A DNA stretch of 20,000 nt from an uncultured virus (IMG/VR IMGVR_UViG_2865217878_000004) (IMGVR_UViG_2865217878_000004), one strand, 5' to 3'; counted from the first letter of the stretch, positions 13-13,934 are shown. The notes: generated from the sequence alone by a model not told the origin. Translations and numbers: made by a program.

Positions 13-432
13 TCAATCCCGCCGCACTGGCCACGGCGAGGCGGCGAGAAGGCCGTCCATCAGGAAGGGCCGTGGGCGTTGACCTTCCACCTGCCGCGCG
101 AAGACACGTTCGCCGCTGCCCAAGTCCCGCCAGGTCAACACCTGCCGTCGAACGGGGCGTATCGGTCGTCGGCGCGGCCCATACACACCGGTCCCCTCAT
201 GAACGTACCGCGCGTAGTCCAGGTCGCTGAACACCTCACCCAGCACTTCTCCCGGTCGGTCGGTGATCTCGGACTGGATGCTGGCACGGAGCGGGCCGTT
301 GCCTGGACAGCGCGCGCGTGCGGAGGCTTCGACCGCCTCGGTGACCTCTCGAACCATGGTGCCGACCCAGCCTGCTGCGGACAGTTCACGGTCGATCACG
401 CCGTTGTCCAGCTCGATGCGGATCTCGCTCAT
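13..432 (-). CDS. HK97 gp10-like neck/tail completion protein
   Basis: 139 aa. ARARCP..GPLRASI..DYARYVHEGTG..RPRPFL matches the HK97-gp10 family pattern; lies downstream of the head-tail joining genes. Confidence 0.75.
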   Translation of the reverse strand: MSEIRIELDNGVIDRELSAAGWVGTMVREVTEAVEASARARCPGNGPLRASIQSEITDRPGEVLGEVFSDLDYARYVHEGTGVYGPRRRPIRPVRRQVLTWRDLGSGERVFARQVEGQRPRPFLMDGLLAASPWPVRRD

Positions 433-543
433 CGCAGATCACCCAGTCTCTTGCTGCTCGTCCTGTGGTGGCCGACTCGCTACCTGCGTACCGGCCGAGC
501 CGCGGACGTGCCGGTCTTCCCCCTCACCGCGCATCGCCTTCGT

Positions 544-1083
544 CTACGCCTCGACGGTGATCGTCAGCAGGACTCCGGCGCAGCCACCTTGGGGGCCAAG
601 GGGGCGTTCGGTGTCGGGTTCGACGGTCACGTCCTGCAGGGCTGAGCAGCAGGCCACCGCTTCGCGGAGCAGGCGGGCGTCGGCGAGGAAGCCCCAGAAC
701 TCGGCCGCGCGCTGCTGGCAGTCCGGGGCTGATTGGCCGTCCGGGGCGGTGACGGCGACGCAGCGGGTCACGCCGAGTTCGATTACGTGGCGTCCGCGCC
801 AGGACAGGCAGCCGCGGGAGGTGCGCCGGTTTCCGGCGAGGTCGGCGACCGGGTCGCGGCGGATCCAGCGCACCCATGCCTGTCCGTGGCCGCCGTCGCA
901 GTCGCAGCCGCACCAGTCCAGGGCGGGGAGGCGTTCGCCCCAGGTGAGGCAGCAGGAGCAGACCGGCCGTTCGGCTGCGGTCAGCGTTGCGCACAGACAG
1001 GCGTGCAGGCCGGACAGGATCGGGCCGAGGAGCGGGTCGGCGTCCGGGGGCAGGAGAGGCTCGTGCTCGACTGGCTGGGTCAT
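544..1083 (-). CDS. Cys-rich neck/tail-terminator-like structural protein
   Basis: Start moved to the ATG at 1083 (MTQPVEH), which forms an ATGA overlap with the upstream stop. 179 aa with 14 Cys and motifs GQAWVR, ELGVTRC, PLGPQGGC. Function inferred from synteny. Confidence 0.6.
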   Translation of the reverse strand: MTQPVEHEPLLPPDADPLLGPILSGLHACLCATLTAAERPVCSCCLTWGERLPALDWCGCDCDGGHGQAWVRWIRRDPVADLAGNRRTSRGCLSWRGRHVIELGVTRCVAVTAPDGQSAPDCQQRAAEFWGFLADARLLREAVACCSALQDVTVEPDTERPLGPQGGCAGVLLTITVEA

Positions 1084-1898
1084 CGCTTGGCTCCTGGGGG
1101 ATAGCGACGCGACAGGGGCGCTGGGGGAAGGTCGAGGGAGTAGACGGCCGGGCGTTGCTGGCCGGGGGTGGGGTTGACCAGTTGGACCCAGGAGTAGATG
1201 TGCGGCATGTGGGTGCGCAGCGTCTCGGCCCAGTCCCCGTCCGGCACGATGTCGTAGGTCACGCCCTCGCGCTGAACGGTGCGCACGCCGCGCGGCAACG
1301 CACAGCCGGTGGCGCCTGGGGTGCACGCTTTGTCGATCTCGCAGGCAAGGCGGCCGACCGCGCGGCGTCCGCCGATGGGCACCTCGAGGCCGCGCAGGTA
1401 GGTGACGGAAAGCGTTCCCGGGGCGGTGTCCGGCAGCGTGAGGTCCTGGTGGTGCGGCCAGCACGCCCCGTCCGTACGTGCGAGGAGCGCGCCGACCGCC
1501 CGAGGAAGCACGGCGTAGGCGGTGGTTGGCAACTCAGTGCCGGCGTGGCGTACGGCGAGCACGCTGTGCACCGGCCCGTGCAGGTAGATGGCGCAGCGGG
1601 GGGTGCACCCGCATCGCGTCTGTCCGCAGCCGCAGGGCGTCTCGCCCCAGTGCCCGGCGCCGAGCCCGGGAGACGTCCTGCCGGGGGATGACGCCGCGCA
1701 CCGGATGCCGCAGGGGCGTTCGACCTCCTCGCACAACCCGTATCGCCCTCCGGTCAGCCGCCAGAGCACGTCGGTGGCCTCCTGCACGGCCGCGAGGTGA
1801 TCCTCGGTCCACTCCCCGGGGTCGTCCGGCCAGCCGGGGCAGCAGGACGGATCGACCGGCCACGGGGCGCAGGGACCGTCCTGCACCTGATCCGGCAT
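1080..1898 (-). CDS. Head-to-tail adaptor/connector
   Basis: ATG 1898 has a GGAGAG RBS (alternative start 1910). CAPWPVD..ATDVLWRLTG..LACEIDKAC..CALP..VQREGVT resembles actinophage adaptors; the position fits. Confidence 0.7.
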   Translation of the reverse strand: MPDQVQDGPCAPWPVDPSCCPGWPDDPGEWTEDHLAAVQEATDVLWRLTGGRYGLCEEVERPCGIRCAASSPGRTSPGLGAGHWGETPCGCGQTRCGCTPRCAIYLHGPVHSVLAVRHAGTELPTTAYAVLPRAVGALLARTDGACWPHHQDLTLPDTAPGTLSVTYLRGLEVPIGGRRAVGRLACEIDKACTPGATGCALPRGVRTVQREGVTYDIVPDGDWAETLRTHMPHIYSWVQLVNPTPGQQRPAVYSLDLPPAPLSRRYPPGAKR

Positions 1899-1919
1899 GG
1901 CTCTCTCCATCTATGTCTG

Positions 1920-1955
1920 CGGTTCGGCCGGCACCGAGTGGTGCCGGCCGAACCG
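1920..1955 (-). terminator. Perfect 16-bp stem-loop; likely terminator/attenuator or mRNA stabiliser
   Basis: CGGTTCGGCCGGCACC-GAGT-GGTGCCGGCCGAACCG, 4 nt after the stop at 1960. No U-tract, which is common in actinomycetes. Confidence 0.7.
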
Positions 1956-1959
1956 GCAG

Positions 1960-2763
1960 CTACTTCGGCTCCGTCTCCTTCTTCTCCGGGCTGCTGGCGC
2001 GTCTCGGCTCGGAGCGGCGTGCCGACGCCTGCGGCCGCGGCTGCGACTGTGGCGGCGGGGTCTGCTGGCCCGGAGGCGGGGACTGGGGCTGCTCAGGTTC
2101 CGGCTCGGGAGCGGGCGGAGCCGGGGGCTGCGGCTCCTCGTTCCCGTCCTGGTCGGGGGCTGCGGTAGCGATGGTGATGGGCACCGTCGCAGCGGTGAGC
2201 ACGCGTGCCGAGCCGTGGCCGACCGCGCCCTGGACGCTGAACTCGTAGGTGGTGTCCGGCTCCAGGCGGCGGATCGGCACGACGCGTTCGTAGCCGCGCA
2301 GTTCCTTCTTCAGCCAGTCGTGCTCGGGCTCGTCCTCGGTGGCCTGGGCCCGGTAGCGCAGCACCCAGCCGTCCGGCTCGGTACGCTCCTGTGAGTTTCC
2401 CGAGTAGTCCCAGGCGATGACGATGGTGTCGGTGGTCGGCTCGCCCTTGGCGCCGAGGCCCTCGACGACCATGTCGTACTCGATGCCGTGATCCGGGTGG
2501 ATCCCGTCCACCTCGAAGACGGTCGGCTCCACCCAGACCATGCGGTCGATGCCGGGCTCGATCGGCTGTGAACCCTCGGCGAGGACGAGGTCGCCGTGGT
2601 CGCCCGCGAACACCTCGGCCGGGATGTGGACGTAGGAGACCGGGTTGCCGATGTGGTACCGGATGCGGCTGCGGTCTTCCTGCGCCCACCACATCACCCG
2701 CTGGAGCACGGCCGCTCGGGTGTCGGGATGGACGACGAGGTAGGTACCGGTCATACGGGGCAT
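1960..2763 (-). CDS. Fibronectin type III domain protein, probable virion decoration protein
   Basis: AAGGAGG RBS. FN3 signature IVIAW..WVLRYR..LEPDTTYEFSVQG, followed by a Pro/Gln/Glu-rich tail. Confidence 0.75.
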   Translation of the reverse strand: MPRMTGTYLVVHPDTRAAVLQRVMWWAQEDRSRIRYHIGNPVSYVHIPAEVFAGDHGDLVLAEGSQPIEPGIDRMVWVEPTVFEVDGIHPDHGIEYDMVVEGLGAKGEPTTDTIVIAWDYSGNSQERTEPDGWVLRYRAQATEDEPEHDWLKKELRGYERVVPIRRLEPDTTYEFSVQGAVGHGSARVLTAATVPITIATAAPDQDGNEEPQPPAPPAPEPEPEQPQSPPPGQQTPPPQSQPRPQASARRSEPRRASSPEKKETEPK

Positions 2764-2766
2764 GGG

Positions 2767-4569
2767 CTATCGCCTCCTTGGCCGACTCGACCGGCGGCTG
2801 CGCGGCGCGGCGGCTGGCAGCGGGATGGTGACCTGCTGCTCGGTGCAGCGCGCCGGCTCGGCCCCGGACACGCAGACGGTGACGGTGTGCGCGCCGGGGG
2901 CCAGGACCTGTTCCGCGGTGACGCCGCTGGCCGGGACGTCCACGACCGGCTGGTCATCCCACTGGATCGTGTAGGTCTCGCTGTCGGTCACGGTCACCGT
3001 GATCACAGCTGAGTTCGCCGCCTGGCCGGGGGCGACGGTGAACTGCGGGCCGGTTCCCGGCTGCTGACCGCCCGGGGTGAACGTGGTGCTCGCGATCACG
3101 GCCAGGTCGGCGGTCGAGGTCGCCGTGATCGTCTGGTCGCCGGAGATGTTCTCGTCGTAGGCGTGGGTGGACTGCGTCTGCCCGGCGGGAACGACAGTGA
3201 CCGGCGTGCCGTCGCCCCAGTCCACCTCGATGTCCGCCTCCGCCGGGAACCCGGTGAGGGTGATCAGCGCGGTGCGGCCGGTGGCATCGGACGGGTCGGC
3301 CTCCGCAGTCAGGGTCGGCTCCGGGGGCTCCTGACCGCCGCCCGGGGTGAACGTGGCGCTGGCTGTCACGGACGGGTCGGCCTGGCTGGTGACCGTGATC
3401 GCCACCTCGCCGGTGACGCTCTCGGCGAAGGCGTGGGTCGCCTCAGCCGTGCCGGCCGGCAGCGACTCCGGCTGTGTGCCGTCGCCCCAGTCCACCGTCA
3501 GCGCGTCCGCGGCCGGGAATCCGGAGAGGGTGATCAGCGCGGTGCGGCCGGTGGCGTCCGCCGGGTCGGCCTCCGCAGTCACCGTCGGCTCGGCGGGAGC
3601 CCCCTCACCGGGGGTGAAGGCGGCGTTGGCCCGAAGCTGTGGGTCCGTCTCGGAGGTGAGGGTGATGGTCACCGTCCCCGTGACGTCCTGTGCGTAGGCG
3701 TAGGTGAGTTCCCCCTCGGCCGGGTGCCCGGTCTCCGGAGCCGTGCCGTCGCCCCAGTCGATCGCCACCGTGCTGTCGGCGGGGAAGCCGCTGTAGGACA
3801 GGAGCGCGGTGCGGCCGGTGGGGTCGCTGGCGTCGGCGGTTGCCTGGGCGGTTGGCTCCGTCCCGCCGCCGTCGAACGGCACGGTGACCTGCTGGCTCGT
3901 GGTGCGGGAGGCGTCGACCGTGTCGGTGGCGGTAACGGCGTAGTCGCCCGGGGTGGTGAACGCGTGACCGGTGGGCGTCTGCCCGTCGCCGGGGTTGGTC
4001 TGCGGCTCGGTGCCGTCGCCGAAGTCGACCAGCGCCTGATTGCCCTGGTTGTCGATCAGCGCGTTCACCGACATCCCGGTGGTGTCGGCGGTGTCCTCCT
4101 CGATGGTGAGCGTGATGTCGGCGACCTCGCCGAACGGCACGGTCACCTGAGCGGTGCCGGTGCGGGTGGTGTCGTCGGCGTCCCTGGCGGTGACGGTGTA
4201 GTCGCCGGGGGCCGCGTACGGGTGGGGCGTCGCCTCCTGGCCGTCACCGGAGTTGGACCCTGCGGGGGTGCCGTCGCCGAAGTCCAGGGTCACGGGGCCC
4301 TGGCCTCGGTTGTCCACGGTGATGGAGGCGGTCATGCGCGAGGCGTCGGTGGTGTCCTCGCCGGCGGTGACCTCCATCTCCTCCGGCTCGCCCCCGACGT
4401 CGAAGGGCAGGGTGAACGTGACTTCGGTGCGCGCCTGGGGGTTGTCGGCGTCGGCGACGACGGCGGTCTTCGCCCCGGGGGTGGCGTACTGGTGGGAGAC
4501 CTGCCCCTGCTCGGGGCCGTTCTCCACCGGGCTGCCGTCGCCCCAGTCGATCGTGGTCGGTCCAGCCAT
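2767..4569 (-). CDS. Protein of about 7 tandem PKD/Ig-like repeats, probable tail decoration/adhesin
   Basis: AAGGAG RBS. Six D(W/F)GDG motifs plus a degenerate QWDDQ, most followed by a HxY/F-type motif; acidic and Thr-rich; short Arg-rich C-terminus. Confidence 0.8.
   Translation of the reverse strand: MAGPTTIDWGDGSPVENGPEQGQVSHQYATPGAKTAVVADADNPQARTEVTFTLPFDVGGEPEEMEVTAGEDTTDASRMTASITVDNRGQGPVTLDFGDGTPAGSNSGDGQEATPHPYAAPGDYTVTARDADDTTRTGTAQVTVPFGEVADITLTIEEDTADTTGMSVNALIDNQGNQALVDFGDGTEPQTNPGDGQTPTGHAFTTPGDYAVTATDTVDASRTTSQQVTVPFDGGGTEPTAQATADASDPTGRTALLSYSGFPADSTVAIDWGDGTAPETGHPAEGELTYAYAQDVTGTVTITLTSETDPQLRANAAFTPGEGAPAEPTVTAEADPADATGRTALITLSGFPAADALTVDWGDGTQPESLPAGTAEATHAFAESVTGEVAITVTSQADPSVTASATFTPGGGQEPPEPTLTAEADPSDATGRTALITLTGFPAEADIEVDWGDGTPVTVVPAGQTQSTHAYDENISGDQTITATSTADLAVIASTTFTPGGQQPGTGPQFTVAPGQAANSAVITVTVTDSETYTIQWDDQPVVDVPASGVTAEQVLAPGAHTVTVCVSGAEPARCTEQQVTIPLPAAAPRSRRSSRPRRR
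3256..3591. repeat. Near-identical ~65-bp direct repeats between adjacent PKD units
   Basis: gagggtgatcagcgcggtgcggccggtggc..gggtcggcctccgcagtca..gtcggctc at about 3256-3321 and 3526-3591 (270-bp period); a weaker copy lies near 3800. Confidence 0.8.
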
Positions 4570-4584
4570 GGCGATTCTTCTCCT

Positions 4585-6246
4585 TCAGGCCGTGGTGGCG
4601 TTGTCGATGTCGAGCTGTATGGTCATGCCGCTGGGATCGGAGGTGTCCGCTCCTGCGGTGGCCTGCGGCTCGGTGGGCTGCCCGGCGCCGGTGTTGTCGA
4701 TGTCGAGCTGGACCGTCATGCCGCTGGGGTCGGACGGGTCGGCGGCGGCGGTCACCTGCGGGCCCGGCTCGTCTTGGCCGAGAGGCACGGTGACCGGCAG
4801 CTCGACGGCCGCGGTGGGCTCGGCGACCGAGGCGACACGGATGGTGTAGTCGCCCTGGGCGGTGTAGGCGTGCTCGGCGGTGCCGGACTCGGGCACCTGC
4901 TGCACCGGGGTGCCGTCGCCCCAGTCGATCGCCACCAGGCCGTTGCCGGTGTTGTCGTAAGTGACAACGGCGGTCATGCCGGTCGGGTCGTCCGGGTCGG
5001 CTTCGACCTCGGCGGCGGGCGCCTGGGCGACGGGTACGCGGATGGCCTCGCGGGTGCGGTAGGTGGGCAGGTCTCCGCGCCGGGCGGCCACGTAGTAGAT
5101 GTTCGGGAACTGGTAGGTGTGCAGGACAGAGACGGTGCCTGCCGCGCTGACCGTGACCTCCTCGGCGGCGGTGCCGTCGCCCCAGTCGACGGTGGCGGTG
5201 CGGTTGGCGTGCGAGGGCAGGCCGATGGTCGCGGTGATCTCGAAGGGGTTGTCGGGGTTGTCGCCGCTGAGGGTGAGGGTGGGTTCGTCGGCCGGCAGCG
5301 GGATCGTCACGGACCGAGTGGCGGTGACTACCGGGGTCTGGGCGTCCGCGACGGTGATCGGGTACTCGCCGTCCCCTTCGTAGGTGTGGGTGACCCAGGT
5401 GCCGTCGGCAACCTGCTGCGGCTCGGAACCGTCCGCCCAGGTCACCAGCACGGGGCCGAGGCCATGGTTGTCCGCCCGCAGTCGGACGGTGCGGCGCGGC
5501 GTCTCGTTGACGACGCCGGTGACGTACAGGTCGGCCGGGTCGGGCACGGGACGGTCCACCGGCAGGCACTCGGTCTCCGGCTCCGGCGGACGCAGCGTGG
5601 TGACGGGGATGAGACGGCGGTGCTTGGTGGGCGGCATCGGCTGAGGCAGCGGACCGGGAACTCCGTTGGCGTCCGCCCAGACCTGGTAGGGACCGCGTCG
5701 CCAGCCGTTCGGGGCGCGGGTCGTCCCAGTGAACGTGGTGGTCAGCGCAGCGTTCGCCACTTCGAGATCGCCTTCGGAGGCGCCGACCACGCGGGGGTAG
5801 AGCAGGTAGCCCCAGCGTCCTTGTGCGACGCTGCCGGTGCACACATCGTCTTCGGAGCTGACCGCCATCCACAGCTCCAGTGCGAATCCGACCTCATTGG
5901 TCGACAGGCCCGAGCTGTCGCCGGTGTCGTAGCCGATGATCTCCTCGCCGTCGTGGACCAGCTCGACGCTCGGGTCGATGATCTGGGCGAGCACCGGGTT
6001 GACCGCACACAGCACGATCTCCAGCTCGTAGTGGGAGAATGTGTTGGTGGCGGGGATGTTCAGGCAGGTCCCGCCGTCAGCGGCGGGCTGGGATATCTCT
6101 TCACCCTCAGTGAACTGCGCGCTCTGCGAGACGCTGACGAAACCGCGGGTGACGATCTGGCCGCACTCGCCGTAGACGGGGCGGCCACACACATCAAGCC
6201 TGGTAAAACGGGCGACGAGGCCACGGTAGAGACGTGCCTCAGGCAT
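4585..6246 (-). CDS. Major tail (tube) protein with C-terminal PKD/Ig-like repeats
   Basis: ATG 6246 has a GAAGGAG RBS. N-terminus TRLDVCGRPVYG..GFVSV..GEEI..WGYLLYP..WRRGPY is typical of actinophage tail tube proteins; then 3 W(G/A)DG repeats and two half-repeats. Confidence 0.8.
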   Translation of the reverse strand: MPEARLYRGLVARFTRLDVCGRPVYGECGQIVTRGFVSVSQSAQFTEGEEISQPAADGGTCLNIPATNTFSHYELEIVLCAVNPVLAQIIDPSVELVHDGEEIIGYDTGDSSGLSTNEVGFALELWMAVSSEDDVCTGSVAQGRWGYLLYPRVVGASEGDLEVANAALTTTFTGTTRAPNGWRRGPYQVWADANGVPGPLPQPMPPTKHRRLIPVTTLRPPEPETECLPVDRPVPDPADLYVTGVVNETPRRTVRLRADNHGLGPVLVTWADGSEPQQVADGTWVTHTYEGDGEYPITVADAQTPVVTATRSVTIPLPADEPTLTLSGDNPDNPFEITATIGLPSHANRTATVDWGDGTAAEEVTVSAAGTVSVLHTYQFPNIYYVAARRGDLPTYRTREAIRVPVAQAPAAEVEADPDDPTGMTAVVTYDNTGNGLVAIDWGDGTPVQQVPESGTAEHAYTAQGDYTIRVASVAEPTAAVELPVTVPLGQDEPGPQVTAAADPSDPSGMTVQLDIDNTGAGQPTEPQATAGADTSDPSGMTIQLDIDNATTA

Positions 6247-6429
6247 GACGTACTCCTTCATTGAGGGCCGTGGTGAGCGGCAGCGGGCGGAGGTCGTTCT
6301 CCGGGGTGGTGCGGCCGCGAGTCGTCAACCTCCGGCCCAAGAGGGGAGCTGTCCGAGGGCCCGGGAGGGGTGGGTGGGTTGCGGATCTACCGGCTGTTCG
6401 AGGAGCCGGCAGGCTCTTGAGGGCCGCCA

Positions 6430-7254
6430 TCACCACTCACTGCTTCCGGAGGGAAGCTGGAGAAGGACGGCTGCGGCGTAGCAGTCGGCGTCCAACGCGT
6501 AGGTGCGCTCCGCGATTGCGATACGGGTGTTGGTTTCCGGGGTGACGGCCTGGTGGGCGAAGGGGGCGCTGCGGCGTGCGGTGACGGTGCCGGTGGCGAT
6601 CAGCCAGCACCGTCCCGAGACGGGGTCCGGCTCGGCGGGTTCTGAGGGGTCGTCGAAGTAGCCGCCCCCGAACGCGATGCGGCTGCCGAGCTCGGTTCGC
6701 ATCATCGGTCCGTTCGGCGTCACCTGCCGCGCCGCCGCGAAGTGCGGCTGCGTCCAGCGAGGAGCGTGAACGGTAGGCCGCCCGGCATAGTGCAGGGCCG
6801 CGTCAGCCTCCAACGCCCCGAGTGCGGTCAGAAGCGGAACCGGCTCGGTGCCCAGGGGAAGCCGCGGGTCAACATCGGCGATCTGAAGCGAGAAGACGCG
6901 CTCCACCTCGCGCGGTTCGATCAGATGCAGGCGGCGCAACGCGGTGCCCTCGGGGTCAGCGAAACCGACCGTCGAGCACTCCAGCCGCGTGTAGACCGTG
7001 AACGGTCCGCCGCCGTTGACCCAGGTCACCCCCTCGGCCTCAGGCTTGTCGTGGCTGGTGCCTCCGGGCGCGGGCTGCGGGCGGGAACCGATCACGTGCC
7101 CGCCTTGCGCACAGGCATCGGTGGCGTAGGTGACGCCGTCGAGCTGCCAGCGGCCGTCCTCGGTGATGACCCGAGCCACGCTGAGCAGGCCGTAGGTGTA
7201 GGTCTCAAGGGGCGGCGGGTCGACTTCCACACTTCCCGGGACCGGGATCGTCAT
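6430..7254 (-). CDS. Second capsid protein (major capsid pentamer-type)
   Basis: ATG 7254 has a GGAG RBS. YGLLSVA..RWQ.GV.Y..PFTVY..C..VERVF..ALGALE..GGGY..N..IAERTY. Directly follows the major capsid gene, as in Rosebush-like hexamer/pentamer pairs (from recall). Confidence 0.65.
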   Translation of the reverse strand: MTIPVPGSVEVDPPPLETYTYGLLSVARVITEDGRWQLDGVTYATDACAQGGHVIGSRPQPAPGGTSHDKPEAEGVTWVNGGGPFTVYTRLECSTVGFADPEGTALRRLHLIEPREVERVFSLQIADVDPRLPLGTEPVPLLTALGALEADAALHYAGRPTVHAPRWTQPHFAAARQVTPNGPMMRTELGSRIAFGGGYFDDPSEPAEPDPVSGRCWLIATGTVTARRSAPFAHQAVTPETNTRIAIAERTYALDADCYAAAVLLQLPSGSSEW

Positions 7255-7270
7255 TGCGTCTCCAGATGGG

Positions 7271-7355
7271 TCCAGCGAGGCGGCCCGGAGCTGGGTGACG
7301 GAGCCGAGCAGCACAAGGGAAGAAAGGTGCGCTCGCGCAGCTCCGAGCCGCTGGA
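7271..7355 (-). terminator. Large nested stem-loop between the two capsid genes
   Basis: 14-bp arms at 7280-7293 and 7338-7351 (one G-U pair on the mRNA) plus an inner stem 7306-7314/7327-7334. Confidence 0.6.
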
Positions 7356-7366
7356 TTGAGAAGAAG

Positions 7367-9250
7367 TCAGGCCGCCAGGGCGGGGACAGGAGCGGGGGCG
7401 GCGTAGGTGACCGACTGGAAGGCGCCGGACAGGCCGTTGGCGAACAGCGGGATCGTCAGGGCGTAGGAGGTGCCGCCTCGAATGCAGACCTGGACGCCTT
7501 CTTCCGTGAAAAGGCTGGTGAAAACGTTGTGCGTGAGACCGTCGTGGTCGTACACCCCGTCCAGCGAGATCACATCTGCCTGCAGGCGGAAGAACGTGCC
7601 GGCCGGGTACAACAGCACGCGCACTTCGGTCGGCCACGCGGTGTGCACCAGACGGCCACCGAATCCCGCCTCATCGCCGTCGGCGTAAGCGTCCTGCCAG
7701 TCGTACACCCACTGCGGCGCCACCCCGGCGTTGCGGAGGTAGGCGTCGAGCTGCTGATCAGAGATGGACCAGCGGTTGTCGATGCCGGCCTTCTTCCTCA
7801 AGTCGCTCTTCAAGATCCCTTTCAACCACAGCGGTGCGATGAGTTCCAGCGTCGCGTTCGGCGCCAGCCGCTCGCGGTAGCGCTGCTGCATGACCTGGTG
7901 CTCCAGAATCGACAGCACCGACTCCACCGCGCCCGGTCCGTGCAGATCCACGACTGCCGCCTGAGGGTCCGGGGTACCCACTGCAGGGAGGGCGACCGGC
8001 CTGGACAATGCCTCCATCCGCGCGAGCTGCCAGGCGTTCATCTTGTGGCTGTGCACCGCGAGCGCGCCTTCGGTGAAGCGCGCGATGCGCTCCGGCCACC
8101 CGCGCTGGGTCAGGATCGGCGTACGCAGGCACACCCCGTCCGCATCCAGGCGGCACTCGACAAAGTCGTCATCGCACGGGACTTCCAAGCACGCTTTGCT
8201 CTCTCCCGCGACAGCCTGGGCCTCGGTCTGATGGAAGCCGACACTGCCCCAAATTTCGGCCCAGTCGAACTCGGCCGGGTATCTCAGCCCACCACGGGTT
8301 GCGGTCAGCGTCGGCAGATCCACCATGCCCTGATCGGTGATACGCAGCTCGGTCAGGTCGTAGAGGGTGAGGCTGGGCGCACACCAGCCGCCGGCCGCGA
8401 CCAGTGAGCCGCCCTCCAGCCGCGACTCGTCCGTGACGAAGTCGATCTTCGAAAGGCCCTCGTCATGGTTGGTCGGGTCCAGGACAGTGACCTCGTCCGG
8501 GGAGGCGCGGATCAGGCGCGCGACTGGGATCTGCTGCCGGTCCCGGCTGCGTGAGTTGATCAGCGGCCTCAGCCGTTCCTCCCACACCGAGCCAAAGGCC
8601 CCCAGGGTCTCCAGGCGTTGCCCGGCGGTTACCTGCCGACCGCCGCCGCCAGTTACATCGGCCGAGGCGATCAGGGTGTAGGAGTCCTGCCAGGACTCGG
8701 CGTCGTCCGGCTGCTGGGGCGGCGGCGTGGAACGCAGCCCCAGCGGGACACGAGGCGGTGCCGAAATCGGCACTCGGCCGGAAGAGACGGAGAGTTCCGC
8801 ACCCGCTGCGGCAGGCTGCGGGTCGGAGGGACCTGCCGGAGCGGAGGTACCGGTCGCGTCAGCCTCAGCGGAAGGGGCCTCCGGTTGAGCTACCGGCTCC
8901 GGACCGGTCGGTTCCAGCTCCGGATCGGCAGCAGGCTCCGAGGGAGGCGGGGGCGCGAGGGCCTGGATGCGGGCCTGGGCGTCCGCTATCCGCTGTACGC
9001 GCTCCTCGACAGCAGCGGTGTACTCGTGAACGCCGTCAGCGACGCGGGCCAGTGTCTCCAGGGAGTCCACCGCAGCGTCGTTGACCAGGCTGTCCTCGAC
9101 GGTGGCCTCGTTGAAGCGGGCGTGGATGTCCGCCGTCAGAGCGACGAGATCGAGATCGGCTGCCTCGGCCAAAGCGGAGCGGATGATGTCGGCGTGCTGC
9201 TCGACCGGTTCATCAGCGAGCCTGGCCAGCAGGTTGTCGAGGAAGCTCAC
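7367..9250 (-). CDS. Major capsid (hexamer-type) protein with long N-terminal scaffold/delta-like region
   Basis: GTG 9250 has an AAAGGGG RBS (the ORF track starts at 9292). Helical N-terminus, a P/A/E linker, then SLVAAGGWCAPS..YD..RGG.RY..KACLEVPC..RGWPE..QWVYDWQ..LYPAGTF..LFTEEG. Confidence 0.88.
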   Translation of the reverse strand: MSFLDNLLARLADEPVEQHADIIRSALAEAADLDLVALTADIHARFNEATVEDSLVNDAAVDSLETLARVADGVHEYTAAVEERVQRIADAQARIQALAPPPPSEPAADPELEPTGPEPVAQPEAPSAEADATGTSAPAGPSDPQPAAAGAELSVSSGRVPISAPPRVPLGLRSTPPPQQPDDAESWQDSYTLIASADVTGGGGRQVTAGQRLETLGAFGSVWEERLRPLINSRSRDRQQIPVARLIRASPDEVTVLDPTNHDEGLSKIDFVTDESRLEGGSLVAAGGWCAPSLTLYDLTELRITDQGMVDLPTLTATRGGLRYPAEFDWAEIWGSVGFHQTEAQAVAGESKACLEVPCDDDFVECRLDADGVCLRTPILTQRGWPERIARFTEGALAVHSHKMNAWQLARMEALSRPVALPAVGTPDPQAAVVDLHGPGAVESVLSILEHQVMQQRYRERLAPNATLELIAPLWLKGILKSDLRKKAGIDNRWSISDQQLDAYLRNAGVAPQWVYDWQDAYADGDEAGFGGRLVHTAWPTEVRVLLYPAGTFFRLQADVISLDGVYDHDGLTHNVFTSLFTEEGVQVCIRGGTSYALTIPLFANGLSGAFQSVTYAAPAPVPALAA

Positions 9251-9322
9251 GCGAGCCCCTTTCGCAGGGGTGTCGTCGAGCTCTCGGCCCACCAGCCAGC
9301 AGAGCAGAGGTCGTGGCTGGGA

Positions 9323-11417: not shown

Positions 11418-13934
11418 TCAGGCGCGGGACTCGGTCATCTCCTCACGCATGAAACCGTCGGCAATGTCCCGGATGTACGCGGAGAGCCCGCCGACGTCAT
11501 CCACCCAGTTCAATGACGGAACCGCAGCCCCGAATCCGGGCGCTGGATCATCCTCCTTGGAGTCGGCTGCGACAGTGGTGGGCGTGAGTCTCCGTGGCGG
11601 GCGCACGCGGCGGGACGCGGTCTGAACGCGTAGGGCCTGGATCGATCGATGCGCGTCTTGAACCCGGCGGCGGAACTCCGCTCGGCGGGCGTGTTCCGCC
11701 TCGACCGCATCGACAAGTCGGCTGAACGCCTTCGGGGAGAGGCCCTCCGGCTCGTCGAGGGAGCGGGGTCGGATACCGGCGGCGATCAGCGCCCAGGGGC
11801 GACCGGCTGTGTCGCGCTGTTCGAGCGGGGCCAACAGCGGCTGGTAGTCCACGGTGGCGGAGGCGGCCAGGGCCTGCCGTTCTTCCTCCGGCAGATCGAC
11901 CGAAATCTCCAGGAACCCTGGTGTGTTGACTGCGTGCGCGCCGACCATTTCCAGTTGCCCGTTGATCACGCGCCAGTCGCCGGACCAGTCGGTGATCCCG
12001 AGTGCGTTGGTCTGGGGCACCCGCAGGTGCGGCAGAATCGCCCCGGCGACCCAGATACCGTGGGCGTCCTCGCCACAGGCGACGACCGCTCCCTGGGCGC
12101 AGGTGTTGTCGTAGTGGTCGATAGCTGCGGCAGCCGACAGACGCTGGTGGGCGTGCCGGCTGGCGAAGGTGAGCTGACCGACGCGAATGATCTCGCTGGT
12201 GTCGGTTTCTATCGCTCGCCGCAGGAAGTATCGGTATCCGCTGGACGAGCGGGGTGGGGTGATGGCCTGTCCGGGATATGAGATGTGCTGGGCCGTCCAG
12301 TCGGCGATGTGGCCGTACAAGCGCCCGGAGGCTTCCACCACCGGTCGGGTGTAGCCGGAGAGCTGCGGGTCGGCGAGCCAGTGGCGCGGTGGGCGCCAGA
12401 CGTTGCCCTCCGGCTCGCGGATCACGACCAGATCAGTGACCGCCGCGGCCAGGAGCGCCACGCGTGCTTCGTCTTGGCTTGATCCGATGGTGATGTCAGG
12501 ATCGTCGAACGCGATGCTCGCCGCCTCGTACAGGTCCGCCACGGCGTTGAGAGCCTGTTGCCGCTGCTGCTCGGTGATGTCCGGTTCGGAGCGCGCGCCG
12601 TTGAGCGCGGCTTGCGCGGAGGTAACGCCTCGCCAGACCAGCCTGAGTTCCCCGTCGATGACGTCGGCTACACCGAACCGGTAACTGGTCGCGTTCTGCG
12701 GCGGCCCGTCCGCGATCAGGAACGCGCGTGACATCTGACCCGGGTCGAACTGGTCGCTCCCTTCGGGAGCGGCCCACTGCCGCACGCGGTTCATCGCGGC
12801 CGCGCCGTCCCACTGTGTCTCCCGCGGTGCCCACGGCAGCGTGACATCCACCGCCAGCACAGCGCCGGACGCCGCGATCGGAGCCTCTGGCGGGTTCTGG
12901 GCGGTCGGCGCGCCGGCGGCCGTCAGCAGGTCCCAAGGAGTGCCACGCACCTCGTCCCGCAGGGCTGGCATCTCCGACAGTCCTTCGATATCCCACCAGG
13001 CGATGACTTCGATGCTGTCGCCATCCGGGTCATCCGGGTTGAGCACAGCCCGGTCCTCGTGGTCCATGTTCAGCGGCACGTCCGCCTCGGCGTCGACCAA
13101 GGCGATGTGGCCGCGGTACACCCCGTTCGCGGAGGTCCACTCACCAGCGATGGGCGCTGAGGACGGCAGCGCGACGCCGGTCTCCTCGCTGAATTCCCGC
13201 ATCGCGGCGTCGAGAGGCGTCTCGCCCTCTTCGATGTGTCCGCCGGGGAACTCCCAGGTTCCGGCCGCCGGATCGTCCTCGGCGAGAGCGCGCTGGATCA
13301 GCAGCACTCGACCGGTGTCCAACGCTTTGACCGCCAGACCGGCCACAGTGGGGACAGCGACGGCGTCCGCCAGGCCCTCTGACGGCAGGCCCTCCGGCGT
13401 GGCGCGAGGCTCGGCCATGTCGATCTGCGCGTTGGGGAAGGCAGGGTGAGCCAGCAACGTCGCGCCCATGATGCGCCAGCGGTCCCACAGCTCGCCGGAC
13501 TCGCCCTCGCTCTCCACCGGGTCGCAGTCTGGGAAAATCTGCCCGTCGTCGCCGACACACACCATGCGGGGCTGAACGCTGTCGACATCCGCGCTGACGA
13601 ACCGCAGGTACCCCTCGCGTATCTTGCGGGCCAGCCGAGGCCCGTCAGGGTCCTCCATGTCGATCTGGCCGCGGCCCCACACCGCATCCCCGTCCCGCCA
13701 GACTTCATCCAGGCGCATCAGACCCACCTCCGCGCCGCGATGACCCTCATCGATGCGCCACTGCACGCCGACGCTCAGCGGCAGCGGCCGGACCGGCACC
13801 TCGTCGTACGGGGTGAGCATGCGGCCGTCAGCGGACCAGGTGTTCGTCCAGGTGATCGGTCCTTCCCAGGTGCCGTCGTCCTGGACGGAGATGGGCAGCG
13901 CGGCGGCTCTCAAGGATGTCCACGGGCTACGCAT
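11418..13934 (-). CDS. Multidomain capsid maturation (prohead) protease with inserted Nudix hydrolase domain
   Basis: AAGGAGGAG RBS; lies between portal and capsid. N-terminal protease-like domain (DGR..LPL..GH..VSAD..PAF), Nudix box GGHIEEGETPLDAAMREFSEETGV, a WDG..ADVIDG domain, and a C-terminal YGHIA..HYDNT..GEDAHGIWVAG..SGDWR..VNTPGF domain. Confidence 0.8.
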   Translation of the reverse strand: MRSPWTSLRAAALPISVQDDGTWEGPITWTNTWSADGRMLTPYDEVPVRPLPLSVGVQWRIDEGHRGAEVGLMRLDEVWRDGDAVWGRGQIDMEDPDGPRLARKIREGYLRFVSADVDSVQPRMVCVGDDGQIFPDCDPVESEGESGELWDRWRIMGATLLAHPAFPNAQIDMAEPRATPEGLPSEGLADAVAVPTVAGLAVKALDTGRVLLIQRALAEDDPAAGTWEFPGGHIEEGETPLDAAMREFSEETGVALPSSAPIAGEWTSANGVYRGHIALVDAEADVPLNMDHEDRAVLNPDDPDGDSIEVIAWWDIEGLSEMPALRDEVRGTPWDLLTAAGAPTAQNPPEAPIAASGAVLAVDVTLPWAPRETQWDGAAAMNRVRQWAAPEGSDQFDPGQMSRAFLIADGPPQNATSYRFGVADVIDGELRLVWRGVTSAQAALNGARSEPDITEQQRQQALNAVADLYEAASIAFDDPDITIGSSQDEARVALLAAAVTDLVVIREPEGNVWRPPRHWLADPQLSGYTRPVVEASGRLYGHIADWTAQHISYPGQAITPPRSSSGYRYFLRRAIETDTSEIIRVGQLTFASRHAHQRLSAAAAIDHYDNTCAQGAVVACGEDAHGIWVAGAILPHLRVPQTNALGITDWSGDWRVINGQLEMVGAHAVNTPGFLEISVDLPEEERQALAASATVDYQPLLAPLEQRDTAGRPWALIAAGIRPRSLDEPEGLSPKAFSRLVDAVEAEHARRAEFRRRVQDAHRSIQALRVQTASRRVRPPRRLTPTTVAADSKEDDPAPGFGAAVPSLNWVDDVGGLSAYIRDIADGFMREEMTESRA

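Follow-up and report, generated by a model that had tools for sequence, protein, structure and literature searches.

A PKD-like domain divided between a prophage tail-tube gene and the gene that follows: candidate docking of a fibre by fold completion in trans

Introduction

If a protein domain is cut by a stop codon and its remainder opens the next gene, do the two parts meet again, and how? The question is raised by a tail locus on the minus strand of a 20,000-nucleotide stretch of DNA (the window) from the uncultured virus IMGVR_UViG_2865217878_000004 (IMG/VR), in which the gene of a tail-tube protein of 558 residues is followed at once by that of a 600-residue protein built of PKD-like domains. 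The tube protein ends with two orphan first halves of a PKD domain (strands A and B; tag 1 and tag 2), and the PKD protein begins with an orphan second half (strands C to G; the socket). The window has a G+C content of about 70% and, since its PKD protein is also recorded from a contig of 7.86 Mb, probably represents a prophage in an actinobacterial chromosome.

The original prediction offered two readings of this arrangement: that the PKD protein is translated separately and docks on the tail tube by completing the domain in trans, or that leaky readthrough of the UGA stop produces an extended tube protein. From comparison of related loci and from structure prediction we consider docking in trans the best account, with a probability of about 0.6.

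Results

A PKD domain interrupted at a gene boundary

The tube protein ends in ...AAADPSDPSGMTVQLDIDNTGAGQPTEPQATAGADTSDPSGMTIQLDIDNATTA, followed by TGA. Direct reading of the minus strand bears out the original description of the junction: both genes lie in one frame, separated by a TGA stop and a short spacer, and an AAGGAG motif (4580-4585, minus strand) overlaps the last base of the stop and stands 10 nt ahead of the ATG of the second gene (Table 1). Homologous database proteins from other sources begin at the same methionine (MAGPTTIDWGDG). Among 11 loci compared, D, D, G, T and N of tag 2 are invariant, and the socket, with a mean column identity of 69%, is the best-conserved portion of the start of the downstream protein.

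The division can be followed on the Pfam profile PKD_4 (PF18911; single-domain cut-off 27 bits). Of its 85 positions, the first 60 residues of the PKD protein cover 40-76 only (18.5 bits). When tag 2, the junction (TGA read as W) and the half-domain are joined, they match positions 3-76 of 85 in one stretch with 23.4 bits, and the intact third Ig-like (immunoglobulin-like) domain of the tube protein scores 21.8 bits over positions 3-66. As all three scores fall short of 27 bits, the profile by itself gives modest evidence of one composite domain. A profile of the socket aligns weakly (E about 0.1) to residues 48-91 of the 95-residue solved ColH PKD domain. Further along the PKD protein, a regular expression finds a tag-like motif followed by WGDG five times; the last domain is atypical. 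The orphan first halves on the tube protein and the orphan second half opening its neighbour, on which the original prediction was built, are found in the sequence, with PKD_4 and in homologues, and the pattern is not a product of chance, since it recurs in 17 further distinct loci.

The split is conserved among relatives

The homologue set comprises 94 clusters, of which 91 have a tube domain; the others are P0089, which is a socket-first PKD protein, P0092 and P0094. Orphan tags, one to three in each case, end the protein in 19 of the 91 tube-bearing clusters (16 recognized by regular expression, three by eye). These proteins stop one to five residues past the [DN]N of strand B, and in 10 of the 12 closest sequences they do so at the same alignment column. 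The loci of relatives were located with a 12-row alignment and their DNA was compared. Twelve of the 29 closer loci examined are split (10 of them distinct) and 17 are unsplit; in a deep clade, 38-39% identical to the tube protein of the window, all seven loci are split. Counting duplicates once and including the window, this gives 18 distinct split loci, and in every one of them the next gene opens at strand C, with the start motif M[AS]GP.TI[DN]WGDG or, in the deep clade, MTV.IQWDAD. Tag and socket are adjacent and co-occur in 18/18 loci, and they differ jointly between the two main clades (...DN[TA] with IDWGDG as against ...WNNA with IQWDAD).

It had been noted at the outset that homologues consisting of fused genes throughout, with a TGA private to this sequence, would undo the prediction. 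Fused and split homologues were both found and the split point is conserved, in 19/91 clusters by the tag ending and in 18 distinct loci by the gene boundary. A sequencing error or a private nonsense mutation is ruled out by this conservation.

Relatives were not recovered by every route. A search of viral contigs with a single protein of the window returned no relative, and blastn against cultured phages gave only five short matches, to PKD repeats. Frankenweenie gp35, a cultured-phage protein encoded after the capsid gene, is unsplit, its PKD domain being intact. The genome of Streptomyces sulphureus DSM 40104 holds, on two contigs, one locus of the split type (L003) and one of the fused type (L005, with a basic tail).

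Frame, stops and spacers

Readthrough conserved as a mechanism would tie the two genes to one frame. The second gene is in frame 0 in six of the 18 distinct split loci (the window, L001, L003, L018, L087 and L091), at +1 in nine (L004, L010, L048, L049, L051, L088, L089, L090 and L092) and at +2 in three (L019, L050 and L093), and six of 18 in frame is the chance expectation. All three frames are present within the close group L089-L093 (95% tube identity), so that insertions and deletions in the spacer are evidently tolerated. The tube gene stops with TGA, TAA (L050) or TAG (deep clade), and L087, which is one of the in-frame loci, has TAG followed directly by TAA. Stop-codon readthrough as a conserved mechanism of the family, one of the two original readings, is refuted by these comparisons of sequence. 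A low-level, incidental UGA leak may occur in this prophage; nothing requires it. A fixed frame offset of the SPP1 gp17.1* type was not seen, as all three offsets occur, and no search was aimed at slippery sites.

The spacers are 9-16 nt long, and those read contain GGAG- or GAGG-like (Shine-Dalgarno-like) motifs. The spacer of L050 measures 86 nt and contains a long G+C-rich hairpin (1636-1724; -48.1 kcal/mol, z -3.76), which may be a terminator or attenuator reducing expression of the socket protein.

Fused relatives, selection and tags on other proteins

In P0010, P0013, P0020 and P0007, Ig domain 2 runs directly into the same 'GFP-type' PKD domains, with neither tags nor socket. P0010, P0013 and P0020 end in a basic tail, and a similar tail ends all eight of the complete downstream PKD proteins of split loci (8/8). 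Given these shared domains and tail, the split form can be read as the fused form with tags, stop, ribosome-binding site, ATG and socket inserted; and because in other relatives a single chain comprises tube, PKD array and basic tail, the two proteins of the split pair can be argued to associate. On a FastTree tree of the first 330 residues (in which the three PKD-only rows lacking a tube domain, P0089, P0092 and P0094, were included), the tag-ending state needs five changes, two of which are forced by well-supported branches. The state is clustered on the tube tree (0/500 shuffles as low) and lies next to fused sisters.

The ratio of non-synonymous to synonymous differences (pN/pS) was taken from 21-55 codons only and without confidence intervals. 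For the last tag, three close groups give 0.26, 0.26 and 0.25; the socket has 0.15 and 0.19 (0.40 in one two-locus group) and the tube domain 0.08-0.22 (0.12-0.22 in two close groups). A divergent fourth group was saturated. Tags and socket are under purifying selection.

Tags are also found on other virion proteins. An orphan tag lies inside the FN3 protein of L010 (9880-11238), and one stands at the C-terminus of a neck-region protein in L087 (10742-11413) and in L088 (near 10908). The homologues of these proteins in the window (1960-2763 and 544-1464) have no tag, and no other tag or incomplete Ig-like domain was found elsewhere in the window.

A structural model of tag and socket

The hypothetical readthrough product was modelled with AlphaFold2 (AF2) as a single chain of 304 residues from a 14-row alignment [predicted local distance difference test score (pLDDT) 74.4]. 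In this model the socket forms five strands (pLDDT 81-92) and tag 1 two (residues 92-97 and 106-112, pLDDT about 75). The single FN3 domain 1lwr aligns to model residues 86-212, which comprise tag 1 and the socket [88 residues aligned, Z-score 8.5, root-mean-square deviation (r.m.s.d.) 3.2 A], and this match equals those of the intact neighbouring domains (Z-scores 8.7 and 8.5). In the model, neither steric constraints nor topology prevent tag and socket from forming a single sandwich of seven strands. Since AF2 tends to complete familiar folds, the model speaks for compatibility only.

The tail-tube protein

The 558-residue protein matches phrog_792 'major tail protein' over residues 6-366 (E 6.3e-70). 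A tblastn search with it matched 855 phage records, with 'major tail protein' annotations among the matches listed, and its distant relatives consist of the tube domain alone, about 225-240 residues ending at PPEPECGCQSLSS. The whole protein also matches Pfam PKD (PF00801; 31.2 bits) and PKD_4 (28.1 bits), both above the gathering score. A tail-tube fold is seen in its AF2 model (pLDDT 91.1, 82-row alignment). With VIA-align, model residues 8-222 superimpose on 8rk3_q, a JBD30 baseplate entry (Z-score 11.1, 170 residues aligned, r.m.s.d. 4.7), and on the YSD1 major tail protein 6xgr (Z-score 10.0, 168 aligned); 9fkb, 9d93 and 9jgh (tails or tube proteins of HFTV1, Bxb1 and another phage) match residues about 1-223 with Z-scores of 8.6-9.0. 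A BFVD search of the tube model found actinophage 'major tail proteins' (Teamocil, E 4e-14; GMA2, TMt 0.80). Foldseek against the Protein Data Bank (PDB) with the whole tube model returned Ig/FN3 arrays only, and a PDB sequence-profile search with the tube protein gave PKD/collagenase and similar matches, none of them covering the tube domain. On its profile matches and predicted fold, we assign the 558-residue protein as a siphophage tail-tube protein.

Table 1. Features of the split-domain locus (window positions; aa, amino acid residues).
Feature	Position	Strand	Basis or detail
Tail-tube (major tail) protein gene, 558 aa	4585..6261	-	Tube domain, three Ig/PKD-like domains, two orphan tags
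Tube domain, about aa 1-235	5557..6261	-	Structural alignment of AF2 model
Three complete Ig/PKD-like domains, about aa 240-495	4777..5544	-	Pfam PKD and PKD_4, AF2 strand pattern, Ig/FN3 matches
Tag 1, orphan strands A-B (AAADPSDPSGMTVQLDIDN)	4693..4749	-	Two strands in both AF2 models
Tag 2, orphan strands A-B (AGADTSDPSGMTIQLDIDNATTA), C-terminus of tube protein	4588..4656	-
TGA stop of tube gene	4585..4587	-
Spacer, 15 nt, AGG AGA AGA ATC GCC	4570..4584	-	Keeps frame into ATG at 4569
PKD-array protein gene, 600 aa, N-terminus MAGPTTIDWGDG	2767..4569	-	Pfam PKD_4 51.7 bits (above gathering score), E 8.9e-14
Socket, N-terminal half-domain, aa 1-57, strands C to G	4399..4569	-
Six further PKD-like domains, about aa 58-585	2815..4398	-
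Basic C-terminal tail of PKD protein (AAAPRSRRSSRPRRR)	2770..2814	-	Protein ends RSRRSSRPRRR

Gene order and neighbouring genes

Pfam and PHROG profiles were scanned against 14 open reading frames of the window and identify a phage structural module on the minus strand, in the order large terminase, portal, MuF-like protein with NUDIX domain, major head protein (phrog_777), phrog_779, tube protein (phrog_792), PKD protein, FN3 protein, head-tail adaptor (phrog_783), phrog_810 and Neck1/gp10-like protein. The tube gene is placed between the capsid genes and the head-tail adaptor, a non-canonical order (13-9292, minus strand), and the position beside the tail chaperones and the tape measure that is usual for a tube gene is not the one it holds in the window. 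Arthrobacter phage Tank (L086) is annotated with the identical gene order and has no other tube-sized gene ahead of its tape measure, so that the displaced position is a trait of the family.

The MuF-like head protein (838 residues; 11418-13934, minus strand; phrog_21470 and phrog_859), whose counterpart in Tank is annotated 'portal protein', has a NUDIX hydrolase domain embedded at residues 206-302 (PF00293, E 6.7e-18). Judged from its sequence, this enzyme might be virion-associated and delivered along with the DNA. Conserved cysteines are unusually abundant in virion proteins (5557-6261, 1080-1910 and 544-1464, all minus strand): C66 and C85 of the tube protein are invariant, a PPEPECxC motif is present, and the adaptor has CCPGWP, CGCG and CGC. 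This richness hints at disulfides or metal sites. The FN3 protein that follows the PKD protein has a long Pro/Gln-rich basic C-terminal tail (1960-2200, minus strand).

Discussion

Comparison with known systems

Domains assembled from two chains are familiar from chaperone-usher pili (Fim, Pap, Caf1), in which an Ig-like fold lacking part of a sheet is completed by a donated segment. In pilins it is the C-terminal G strand that is missing, one N-terminal strand is received in its stead, and assembly into polymers requires a chaperone and an usher; here strands A and B are missing and would be donated by a C-terminal hairpin, and no chaperone or usher gene was found among the 14 open reading frames scanned, so the pili serve as an analogy only. 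The lambda gpV C-domain and T5 pb6 are examples of Ig-like domains carried in cis on tube proteins. In these, in the fused relatives and in the window alike, the Ig-like domains project C-terminal of the tube fold; the first three are covalently continuous, whereas the lineage of the window breaks the chain inside a domain. SpyTag/SpyCatcher, an engineered split of the CnaB2 domain locked by an isopeptide, resembles the present pair in being a beta-sandwich divided into a short tag and a larger partner. The socket has no invariant lysine; a SpyTag-like isopeptide lock was therefore rejected, and a covalent lock is unlikely.

Among solved structures, the baseplate of Lactococcus phage Tuc2009 comes closest. 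BppU ends there in a hairpin of 25 residues that 'completes one of the beta-sheets' of BppA domain 2, giving a composite similar to a titin Ig domain (PMC4742702). As described there, a C-terminal hairpin of a structural tail protein completes the incomplete sandwich of an accessory protein, which is consequently held on the virion by fold completion. The same two elements are predicted here, a C-terminal hairpin on a tail protein and an accessory protein with an incomplete five-strand sandwich. The joint in Tuc2009 is at the baseplate, whereas here it would be on the tube, and the incomplete sandwich is C-terminal in the Tuc2009 accessory protein and N-terminal in ours. The Tuc2009 pair was not presented as one PKD domain, recognizable from sequence, that is cut between neighbouring genes, and it shows neither tandem tags nor fused and split relatives. 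BppA and BppU are absent from the nine PDB matches (E up to 10) of the socket profile, the only profile used for this comparison. The original view that nothing like completion in trans had been described for phage tails has to be qualified in view of BppU-BppA (PMC4742702); what stands is its narrower part, as our literature search found no account of a tube protein whose PKD or Ig domain is split and continued in the following gene.

SPP1 provides a second comparison. A +1 programmed frameshift appends an FN3 domain to its tube protein, giving gp17.1* in a 3:1 ratio (PMC6316719). As would be the case here, the Ig/FN3-type decoration at the C-terminus of the SPP1 tube protein is optional and present on some subunits only; in SPP1 it is thought to aid adhesion (PMC6316719). 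The SPP1 product is one longer frameshifted chain, whereas the two chains of our locus are initiated independently and their frames are unrelated.

Proposed docking of the PKD protein

In our proposal, tube and PKD-array proteins are separate translation products, synthesis of the latter beginning at a ribosome-binding site of its own right after the tube stop. The C-terminal arm of the tube protein would present one to three (here two) beta-hairpins of ~20 residues, equivalent to PKD strands A and B, and the N-terminus of the PKD protein would supply the other five strands, C to G, the conserved break lying in the B-C loop. On insertion into the socket, a hairpin would donate A and B, of which B is the central strand of one sheet, and a fibre of about six and a half domains and a basic tail would so be fastened non-covalently to the outside of the tail tube. 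One or both tags may be occupied. Attachment might be aided in its timing by translation of the adjacent genes, whose coupling is probable. The fibre would probably serve adhesion to the host envelope, as its PKD array, its basic tail and the analogy with other Ig-like decorations suggest.

Separate translation with completion of the sandwich in trans, as originally put forward, fits all of the comparative evidence, and because many relatives keep the split, the second protein probably clips onto the tail; physical binding in trans is the part that we infer. Several points weigh against it. In the model of the readthrough chain it is tag 1, not the terminal tag 2, that fills the socket, and tag 2 is disordered (pLDDT about 35). 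The tag 1 hairpin is confident without the socket as well (pLDDT about 80, strands 502-507 and 517-522 of the 558-residue model), so that another packing partner for it is possible. The structural support consists of a single-chain AF2 model of a hypothetical fusion, in cis, which addresses compatibility and not binding. The composite of tag 2 and socket scores below the curated Pfam cut-off, the pN/pS values come from few codons, and the split loci are not independent, several being closely related. No cultured phage with the split was found by tblastn with the socket region or with the Ig domains plus tags.

Other explanations

Leaky or programmed UGA readthrough, giving a tube protein of about 1164 residues in which the domain is completed in cis in some subunits, would account for the in-frame genes and the TGA stop of the window; the AF2 chain can be folded across the junction region, and in SPP1 it is established that recoding extends a tube protein by an FN3 domain (PMC6316719). 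Set against this, the genes are in frame in just six of the 18 distinct split loci, as expected by chance, one of these has TAG then TAA, TAA and TAG stops occur, and the frame differs between close relatives. The second gene has its own Shine-Dalgarno-like motif and ATG, the methionine at which database proteins begin. Readthrough would moreover have to decode the spacer via AGG AGA AGA, and AGG and AGA codons are rare in high-GC actinobacteria. We regard it as highly improbable. An unlikely reading, less so than the last, takes the tags and the half-domain as leftovers of gene fission by recombination between PKD repeats, with no binding through them and with the PKD protein acting elsewhere or through another surface. 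The break point, however, stays the same even in clades with as little as 38% identity, pN/pS for both tag and socket is well under 1, and the tags are duplicated rather than decaying and are present on other virion proteins, all of which is at odds with debris. With 69% mean column identity, the socket is conserved better than any other part of the downstream start, and, to judge from Ig-fold topology, a sandwich of five strands without its central B strand would probably not be stable by itself. What fission has in its favour is that PKD arrays recombine easily, that fused and split states interconvert on the tube tree (five state changes) and that tag 2 is disordered in both AF2 models.

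The tags might instead be docking or assembly hairpins for some other partner, such as adjacent tube subunits, a protein of the neck or a polymer on the host surface, with another donor completing the socket. The confident hairpin of tag 1 without the socket would agree with this, as would the tags on several proteins of relatives and the presence of two tags for one socket-bearing gene in the window. Yet no other tag or incomplete Ig-like domain was found in the window, tag and socket are adjacent in 18/18 loci and differ jointly between the two main clades, and together they match one PKD profile in a single stretch, below its cut-off. This explanation strikes us as rather less credible than fission, if not as remote as readthrough. 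Docking of the PKD protein through the completed domain remains, for us, the preferred explanation.

Docking in trans may be one instance of something wider. It seems an even bet that actinophages use a natural, portable and non-covalent plug and socket, in which an A-B tag of ~20 residues, single or in tandem, is carried on tube, neck-region and FN3 proteins, a socket-headed PKD fibre is displayed at several sites of the virion, and lineages switch between fused and split forms.

Significance

If docking in trans is correct, the tube decoration is added post-translationally, a third route beside Ig domains in cis (lambda, T5) and the frameshift extension of SPP1. The amount of decoration could then be adjusted separately from the amount of tube protein, and transfer of a 20-residue tag would be enough to bring one fibre to another site of the virion. 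It would also account for the adjacent 'hypothetical' PKD proteins in many Streptomyces prophages. For annotation, a domain ending at a stop codon need not mean a pseudogene or a recoding site. The tag-socket pair is small, sequence-recognizable and naturally diversified, and could serve as a protein-assembly tool or tag-and-catcher pair. Should the plug-and-socket reading hold as well, it would amount to a new and general means by which phages construct and rearrange the decoration of their virions.

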